DNA of 5,369 bases from Giardia intestinalis (taxonomy: Eukaryota). The DNA lies in NCBI GenBank assembly GCA_000002435.2, contig AACB03000025.1; one strand, written 5' to 3'. The position numbers and the translations under genes are program-made. Of this stretch, positions 373 through 3,300 are shown piece by piece; position 1 is the stretch's first letter, and every line of letters begins with the position of its first letter. The notes beneath the pieces were generated by a model. The model did not search any database and had not been told where the DNA came from. It worked only from the letters and a program-made list of their open reading frames with translations.

Positions 373-3300
373 CACTTCTTGCACTCCTTTGCGTCGGAAA
401 CGCTGTCGTCGGTGTAGTAGCCCGCGCTCCCCTGGCAGTCGACCGCGCTGACGCACGTCCCCGTCGGGTCGCTGGGATTCGTCTTCTTCAGGTAGGGCGC
501 GGCGCCGTTTGCGTCGCATTTGGTGCACTTATCGGCCGTTCCAGCACACGCCGTGCAAGGGCGTTGCACTTCTTGCACTCCTTTGCGTCGGAAACGCTGT
601 CGTCGGTGTAGTAGCCCGCGCTCCCCTGGCAGTCGACCGCGCTGACGCACGTCCCCGTCGGGTCGCTGGGATTCGTCTTCTTCAGGTAGGGCGCGGCGCC
701 GTTTGCGTCGCATTTGGTGCACTTATCGGCCGTTCCAGCACACGCCGTGCAAGGGGCGTTGCACTTCTTGCACTCCTTTGCGTCGGAAACGCTGTCGTCG
801 GTGTAGTAGCCCGCGCTCCCCTGGCAGTCGACCGCGCTGACGCACGTCCCCGTCGGGTCGCTGGGATTCGTCTTCTTCAGGTAGGGCGCGGCGCCGTTTG
901 CGTCGCATTTGGTGCACTTATCGGCCGTTCCAGCACACGCCGTGCAAGGGGCGTTGCACTTCTTGCACTCCTTTGCGTCGGAAACGCTGTCGTCGGTGTA
1001 GTAGCCCGCGCTCCCCTGGCAGTCGACCGCGCTGACGCACGTCCCGTCGGGTCGCTGGGATTCGTCTTCTTCAGGTAGGGCGCGGCGCCGTTTGCGTCGC
1101 ATTTGGTGCACTTATCGGCCGTTCCAGCACACGCCGTGCAAGGGGCGTTGCACTTCTTGCACTCCTTTGCGTCGGAAACGCTGTCGTCGGTGTAGTAGCC
1201 CGCGCTCCCCTGGCAGTCGACCGCGCTGACGCACGTCCCCGTCGGGTCGCTGGGATTCGTCTTCTTCAGGTAGGGCGCGGCGCCGTTTGCGTCGCATTTG
1301 GTGCACTTATCGGCCGTTCCAGCACACGCCGTGCAAGGGGCGTTGCACTTCTTGCACTCCTTTGCGTCGGAAACGCTGTCGTCGGTGTAGTAGCCCGCGC
1401 TCCCCTGGCAGTCGACCGCGCTGACGCACGTCCCCGTCGGGTCGCTGGGATTCGTCTTCTTCAGGTAGGGCGCGGCGCCGTTTGCGTCGCATTTGGTGCA
1501 CTTATCGGCCGTTCCAGCACACGCCGTGCAAGGGGCGTTGCACTTCTTGCACTCCTTTGCGTCGGAAACGCTGTCGTCGGTGTAGTAGCCCGCGCTCCCC
1601 TGGCAGTCGACCGCGCTGACGCACGTCCCCGTCGGGTCGCTGGGATTCGTCTTCTTCAGGTAGGGCGCGGCGCCGTTTGCGTCGCATTTGGTGCACTTAT
1701 CGGCCGTTCCAGCACACGCCGTGCAAGGGCGTTGCACTTCTTGCACTCCTTTGCGTCGGAAACGCTGTCGTCGGTGTAGTAGCCCGCGCTCCCCTGGCAG
1801 TCGACCGCGCTGACGCACGTCCCCGTCGGGTCGCTGGGATTCGTCTTCTTCAGGTAGGGCGCGGCGCCGTTTGCGTCGCATTTGGTGCACTTATCGGCCG
1901 TTCCAGCACACGCCGTGCAAGGGGCGTTGCACTTCTTGCACTCCTTTGCGTCGGAAACGCTGTCGTCGGTGTAGTAGCCCGCGCTCCCCTGGCAGTCGAC
2001 CGCGCTGACGCACGTCCCCGTCGGGTCGCTGGGATTCGTCTTCTTCAGGTAGGGCGCGGCGCCGTTTGCGTCGCATTTGGTGCACTTATCGGCCGTTCCA
2101 GCACACGCCGTGCAAGGGGCGTTGCACTTCTTGCACTCCTTTGCGTCGGAAACGCTGTCGTCGGTGTAGTAGCCCGCGCTCCCCTGGCAGTCGACCGCGC
2201 TGACGCACGTCCCCGTCGGGTCGCTGGGATTCGTCTTCTTCAGGTAGGGCGCGGCGCCGTTTGCGTCGCATTTGGTGCACTTATCGGCCGTTCCAGCACA
2301 CGCCGTGCAAGGGGCGTTGCACTTCTTGCACTCCTTTGCGTCGGAAACGCTGTCGTCGGTGTAGTAGCCCGCGCTCCCCTGGCAGTCGACCGCGCTGACG
2401 CACGTCCCCGTCGGGTCGCTGGGATTCGTCTTCTTCAGGTAGGGCGCGGCGCCGTTTGCGTCGCATTTGGTGCACTTATCGGCCGTTCCAGCACACGCCG
2501 TGCAAGGGGCGTTGCACTTCTTGCACTCCTTTGCGTCGGAAACGCTGTCGTCGGTGTAGTAGCCCGCGCTCCCCTGGCAGTCGACCGCGCTGACGCACGT
2601 CCCCGTCGGGTCGCTGGGATTCGTCTTCTTCAGGTAGGGCGCGGCGCCGTTTGCGTCGCATTTGGTGCACTTATCGGCCGTTCCAGCACACGCCGTGCAA
2701 GGGGCGTTGCACTTCTTGCACTCCTTTGCGTCGGAAACGCTGTCGTCGGTGTAGTAGCCCGCGCTCCCCTGGCAGTCGACCGCGCTGACGCACGTCCCCG
2801 TCGGGTCGCTGGGATTCGTCTTCTTCAGGTAGGGCGCGGCGCCGTTTGCGTCGCATTTGGTGCACTTATCGGCCGTTCCAGCACACGCCGTGCAAGGGGC
2901 GTTGCACTTCTTGCACTCCTTTGCGTCGGAAACGCTGTCGTCGGTGTAGTAGCCCGCGCTCCCCTGGCAGTCGACCGCGCTGACGCACGTCCCCGTCGGG
3001 TCGCTGGGATTCGTCTTCTTCAGGTAGGGCGCGGCGCCGTTTGCGTCGCATTTGGTGCACTTATCGGCCGTTCCAGCACACGCCGTGCAAGGGGCGTTGC
3101 ACTTCTTGCACTCCTTTGCGTCGGAAACGCTGTCGTCGGTGTAGTAGCCCGCGCTCCCCTGGCAGTCGACCGCGCTGACGCACGTCCCCGTCGGGTCGCT
3201 GGGATTCGTCTTCTTCAGGTAGGGCGCGGCGCCGTTTGCGTCGCATTTGGTGCACTTATCGGCCGTTCCAGCACACGCCGTGCAAGGGGCGTTGCACTTC

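Follow-up and report, generated by a model that had tools for sequence, protein, structure and literature searches.

The window, by which we mean the entire stretch of 5369 bp analyzed here, carries on its minus strand vspA6/CRP170 of Giardia lamblia (assemblage AI, WB-type), an already known gene encoding an immunodominant surface antigen. The coding region crosses the left edge of the window, and its last ∼320 codons, with the transmembrane helix and CRGKA, lie beyond that edge. The layout of the gene within the window was as follows.

1–3548, minus strand: the 5′ 3.5 kb of the vspA6 (CRP170, GL50803_221693-type) coding region, whose corrected translation equals a prefix of the reference protein.
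51–372, minus strand: beginning of the cysteine-rich, non-repetitive region that follows the repeats (KCAEGQKPNTAG...CTSDKTHFTRE), identical to the GL50803_221693 residues and with 91% nucleotide identity to the orthologue of the DH isolate.
373–3449, minus strand: vspA6 tandem array of 15.8 copies of a 195-bp (65-aa) unit, from Tandem Repeats Finder.
3450–3548, minus strand: leader of 99 bp (33 codons), comprising the putative signal peptide MLVGIGLIFAVALADA plus CSPSIDGCAECDSTGKK, from the translation and the published description of vspA6.
3544–3550, minus strand: CAATGTT initiator-type motif CTCAATGTTGG, from sequence context.

The gene was identified by comparison with GL50803_221693, the WB gene on chromosome 4 that corresponds to vspA6/CRP170 and to vsp67 of Adam et al. 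2010; vspA6 is not mentioned in the supplements of that paper. Müller et al. 2020 (PMC7332775) matched CRP170 to GL50803_221693 (GLCHR04:1824451–1831230), whose ORF of 2259 aa is intact; peptides cover 88% of the protein, which dominates among the VSPs of the WB-A1 clone. The reference protein was taken from the supplement of that paper. The translation of the window was corrected by putting back four bases (T after 50, G after 561, C after 1045 and G after 1729) and was begun at the annotated ATG 3662. All of its 1222 residues (1222/1222) then formed an exact prefix of GL50803_221693 rebuilt with 15 instead of 26 full repeats, in a comparison made at the protein level only, to which synonymous differences outside the array are invisible. 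The window and the reference gene share the leader, the 65-aa/195-bp repeat with GAAPYLKK, the NGNTPYLKK of the first unit and the post-repeat sequence, whereas the window differs in having 15 full repeats instead of 26, four 1-nt deletions and a 3′ end that falls beyond its edge.

The 2259-aa reference was itself absent from the results of both a word-indexed and an exhaustive protein search, which returned paralogues and orthologues only, all of them annotated Giardia variant-specific surface proteins with PF03302. Pfam gave no match for the protein confined to the window, since PF03302 mainly covers the C-terminus, which lies outside it; GL50803_221693, identical over the shared part, ends in ...FLCWWFICRGKA and matched PF03302 with E = 7e-66. 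The 1184 corrected residues contained 54 CXXC motifs and 12.2% Cys, as in the cysteine-rich ectodomain of VSPs. The paralogues of the vspA6-S1/vspA6-S2 type and the DH orthologue (P0001, P0006 and P0011) share with the window the upstream sequence, the signal peptide, a repeat-derived module and the C-terminal VSP body, and the DH locus (L001) showed 91–93% nucleotide identity to it. These relatives differ from the window in carrying one repeat copy or repeats of 67 aa (201 bp), with 50–82% protein identity, and all of them are uninterrupted ORFs.

Tandem Repeats Finder detected a single array in the window (373–3449), with a period of 195 and 99% matches. PMC2996952 describes vspA6 as an initial 99 bp followed by 195-bp tandem repeats; both the period and the 99-bp leader fit this description and support the identity of the gene. 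The repeats also encode the epitope of monoclonal antibody 6E7, identified as GAAPYLKK in Supplementary Fig. S2 of PMC7332775, of which we counted 15 copies, one per full unit. The 5′-most unit (3295–3449) has NGNTPYLKK at 3422–3425 in place of NGAAPYLKK, the very variant found in the reference protein, so that the first copy is without the 6E7 epitope. The repeat motif, with either G3 or G4 accepted, gave 0 matches when metagenomes were scanned for it.

The number of repeats, 15 full and 1 partial, compares with 26 full and 1 partial in GL50803_221693 and with about 22–23 in the cloned vspA6 gene (PMC2996952), and is thus below the about 22–27 copies that mark vspA6. In the part of PMC2996952 dealing with vspA6, copy number is reported to vary among alleles and to be prone to assembly collapse. 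The lower number in the window may therefore represent a real shorter allele or a collapsed assembly, both of which are documented for vspA6.

Upstream of the repeats, the likely start codon is ATG 3548–3546 (MLVGIGLIF...), located inside the CAATGTT motif; a CAATGTT/TAATGTT initiator (Inr) at the VSP start codon was described in PMC2996952. In GiardiaDB, GL50803_221693 starts at the upstream ATG 3662–3660 (MCPRFRW...), with 38 more residues before the signal peptide. Judging from the CAATGTT motif and from the annotated starts of the WB paralogues P0006 and P0011, which are both MLVGIGLIF, ATG 3548 is likely the real start. The putative signal peptide MLVGIGLIFAVALADA is identical to the N-termini of these two annotated WB VSPs. 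The start codon, the Inr and the signal peptide are all intact in the window.

Further upstream, no ORF above 130 aa was found in the 1.65 kb at 3720–5369. Six ORFs tested from the upstream 1.65–1.8 kb gave no Pfam match, and no tRNA or Rfam match was obtained there, in line with the report by Xu et al. (PMC7000408) that VSPs lie in gene-poor surroundings. Similarity to the DH locus stops at window position 3912, and synteny further upstream is not common to DH. A non-coding G4 at 3880–3883 corresponds to G5 in the DH locus (about 9780) with otherwise identical flanks; it may represent either one more under-call, the fifth, or genuine variation between isolates.

For a unit-by-unit comparison, we then cut the array at a fixed anchor. 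Of the 15 full units, 12 were byte-identical, in agreement with the count of intact units in the first-pass annotation, and the other three were each short of one base and otherwise the same. The three missing bases are those of the G/C-run contractions that the annotation had pointed out, which were located both by motif position and by unit comparison: CAAGGGCG occurs at 556 and 1724, placing GGG runs at 559–561 and 1727–1729, and GTCCCGTC occurs at 1041, placing a CCC run at 1043–1045, while the intact forms CAAGGGGCG and GTCCCCGTC occur 13 and 15 times, respectively. In the order in which a ribosome would meet them, the contractions are the following.

1727–1729, in unit 1541–1734: first contraction, G4 to G3 on the plus strand (codons AAC GCC CCT, C4 to C3), after which the frame reaches a stop at 1656–1658.
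1043–1045, in unit 957–1150: second contraction, C4 to C3 on the plus strand (codons ACG GGG ACG, G4 to G3), after which the frame reaches a stop at 877–879.
559–561, in unit 373–566: third contraction, G4 to G3 on the plus strand at the same unit position as 1727–1729, after which the frame reaches a stop at 488–490.

Each shifted frame thus stops within 70–165 nt, and the minus-strand ORFs are left in pieces at 488..1111 (207 aa), 877..1890 (337 aa) and 1656..3710 (684 aa); the link from the contractions to these stops and fragments was as the annotation had described it. Every unit contains only three 4-nt homopolymers (12 of its 195 nt), and all three deletions in the array fall inside them, more often than expected by chance (P = 2.3e-4 for three random deletions all to do so). 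Two of the three lie at the same unit position, which points to a context-dependent error. We also considered a higher-order repeat, as the deletions are in units 1, 4 and 7 when counted from the left (G, C and G), but unit 10 has the consensus sequence, so there is no duplicated 6-unit block.

Although real, the observation of three contractions was incomplete, as the first reading had missed a fourth deletion close to the left edge.

About 50: fourth 1-nt deletion, TT to T on the plus strand (ggccTctctc against an implied ggccTTctctc), from three-frame translation, the DH alignment and the reference.

The annotation had expected that correction of the three contractions would yield an intact ORF. 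With those three bases restored, the frame did open to the left edge, but it was not the true ORF up to that edge: its last residues, THFTRERPVTRRGCASHAATQP, are unlike any VSP, and three-frame translation gave REAGDSKGMCLSCSDATH in another frame near the edge. The true protein reads THFTREKAGDSKGMCLSCSDATH near the left edge, in a frame other than frame 0, and the true frame below position 50 reads GDSKGMCLSCSDATH. Across this site the GL50803_221693 protein reads THFTREKAGDSKGMCLSC, and all homologues have ...CTSDKTHFTKE..GDSKGMCLSCSDAT... there. On the minus strand the window has AGA GAG A-G GCC, as against the AGA GAG AAG GCC implied by the reference (R E K A). In the nucleotide alignment with the DH orthologue, the sole gap in 524 columns falls at the same site, and insertion of one base there produced an exact match to the reference. 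Positions 1–50 of the window belong to a part of the VSP body in which several paralogues hardly differ (GDSKGMCLSCSDATHGI...), and it is plausible that the contig breaks, or the window was cut, at multi-copy sequence near this point.

With four deletions the total shift is −4, and the N-terminal frame is no longer the one read at the extreme left edge. The earlier proposal that the two frames coincide at the edge is accordingly correct only between about 558 and about 51 and fails below, at the fourth deletion. Nor can the restored frame be used as a signal, because three −1 events restore the frame by arithmetic alone; a return to frame that follows from three deletions in the same direction says nothing about selection.

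This arithmetic, with three −1 shifts restoring the frame between about 558 and about 51, is also all that favors a functional role, in which the short G/C runs would serve phase variation, programmed ribosomal frameshifting or transcriptional slippage to tune antigen expression. Each shifted frame runs into its stop within 70–165 nt and the fourth deletion breaks the frame again, so that the idea of three −1 events ‘designed’ to return to frame is close to refuted, and programmed frameshifting was rejected on account of the stop after each shift together with the fourth shift. In the reference gene the shifts are absent, and a single protein is made from it, for which peptides from both ends have been recorded (Müller et al. 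2020, PMC7332775), and VSP switching in Giardia is described as epigenetic or post-transcriptional. Bacterial contingency loci resemble the window in having homopolymer-tract frameshifts inside surface-antigen genes, but their tracts are typically 7 nt or longer, near the 5′ end, and act as a single switch. The window instead has 4-nt runs, far shorter than the tracts of known contingency loci, in scattered units, plus a 2-nt run, in a eukaryote with epigenetic VSP control, and we saw no sign of variation at these runs. We regard a functional role of the frameshifts as extremely improbable.

In total, the differences from GL50803_221693 amounted to 4 deletions (in runs of 4, 4, 4 and 2 nt), 0 insertions and 0 amino-acid substitutions; that is, they were 1-nt deletions in homopolymers without any amino-acid change, the form that under-calling would take. 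We infer that the four deletions are residual consensus errors of a long-read assembly of the PacBio CLR or nanopore type, with a probability of roughly 0.85. Errors in long-read consensus sequences are overwhelmingly homopolymer deletions, and only long reads can span a 3-kb array made up of identical 195-bp units. Two points count against this origin: the fourth deletion is in a 2-nt run, a less classic site for an under-call, and G4/C4 runs are natural slippage sites as well.

Between the two explanations that the first-pass annotation had offered, homopolymer under-calling and a decaying paralogue, the former is thus favored, since only deletions are found, no amino acid is changed and the start is intact, and the pseudogene is disfavored. 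The latter deserves consideration as a case of genuine frameshifts, in which replication slippage in short G/C runs would have inactivated a silent or recently pseudogenised vspA6 allele or duplicate of ∼16 repeats, while expression would come from a second, intact allele that has more repeats. The portion of PMC2996952 on vspA6, citing Yang & Adam 1994, reports repeat-number variation among its alleles and allele-specific expression; Giardia is tetraploid and, according to the same portion, only some of the repeat-number alleles are expressed, which would leave room for real frameshifts in a silent allele. The repeat number does differ (15 full units here and 26 in the reference), rearrangements at the vspA6 locus have been reported, and Xu et al. 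(PMC7000408) counted 208 pseudo-VSPs in WB.

Such decay would, however, have had to bring four independent inactivating events with no amino-acid change in 1222 codons and no substitution in the 2.9 kb of repeats, all four of them being deletions, and to have left the promoter-proximal Inr, the start codon and the signal peptide untouched. In natural decay, substitutions far outnumber 1-nt deletions, and four inactivating deletions unaccompanied by any substitution would be unusual. The gene conversion that keeps the units identical would also be expected to remove such variants or to pass them on to other units, and allelic heterozygosity in WB is only 0.01–0.03%. The pseudo-VSPs of WB were defined by loss of a proper start or signal peptide (Xu et al., PMC7000408), and the copy in the window, with start, Inr and signal peptide intact and no amino-acid change in 1222 codons, is not of this kind. 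We therefore consider genuine frameshifts unlikely. Their most specific version, an accurate contig of a non-expressed ∼16-repeat vspA6 allele with four recent slippage deletions, accompanied in the same tetraploid cell by an intact and expressed allele of 26–27 repeats, appears quite unlikely.

An origin in sequencing and assembly, the reading we prefer, could have come about as follows. The array would have been assembled from long reads, this being the only possible route, on a platform that under-calls homopolymers, with errors that would almost all be 1-nt deletions. Short reads would have no unique placement in a perfect 3-kb array or in VSP sequence that paralogues also carry; they would fit the error-free copies better, and polishing would then leave the damaged copies uncorrected. 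A precedent for such a technical origin is the PacBio RS II draft of Giardia WB, for which Xu et al. 2020 (PMC7000408) reported homopolymer frameshift errors. As in the window, these were single-base homopolymer indels that truncated full-length Giardia genes, and their short-read correction depended on confidently mapped reads: repairs were made only where at least 10 mapped Illumina reads backed the change, and the leftover contigs were small and ‘enriched with repeats... and gene families’ (Xu et al. 2020, PMC7000408). The frameshifts are thus most probably not a biological feature, and the underlying gene is very probably intact.

For annotation, the consequence is that a gene caller would break this vspA6 copy up into three or four pieces or annotate it as pseudogenic. 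It is in perfect tandem arrays that indel errors of long reads go unrepaired by short-read polishing, and counts of VSPs and pseudo-VSPs from such assemblies therefore call for caution. Real frameshifts would amount to decay of vspA6 confined to particular alleles, which would extend modestly what has been described on allele-specific VSP expression; if the copy were indeed a silent allele, it would exemplify allele-specific pseudogenisation of a major surface antigen, with short G/C runs as mutational weak points.

The array also contains long ORFs on the opposite strand, at 1677–3464 (plus strand, 595 aa) and 509–1078 (plus strand, 189 aa), and an off-frame ladder of 64-aa minus-strand ORFs (MHQMRRKRRR...) recurring every 195 nt. 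Both arise from the repetition of a stop-free unit; they are not genes, and could mislead gene callers.
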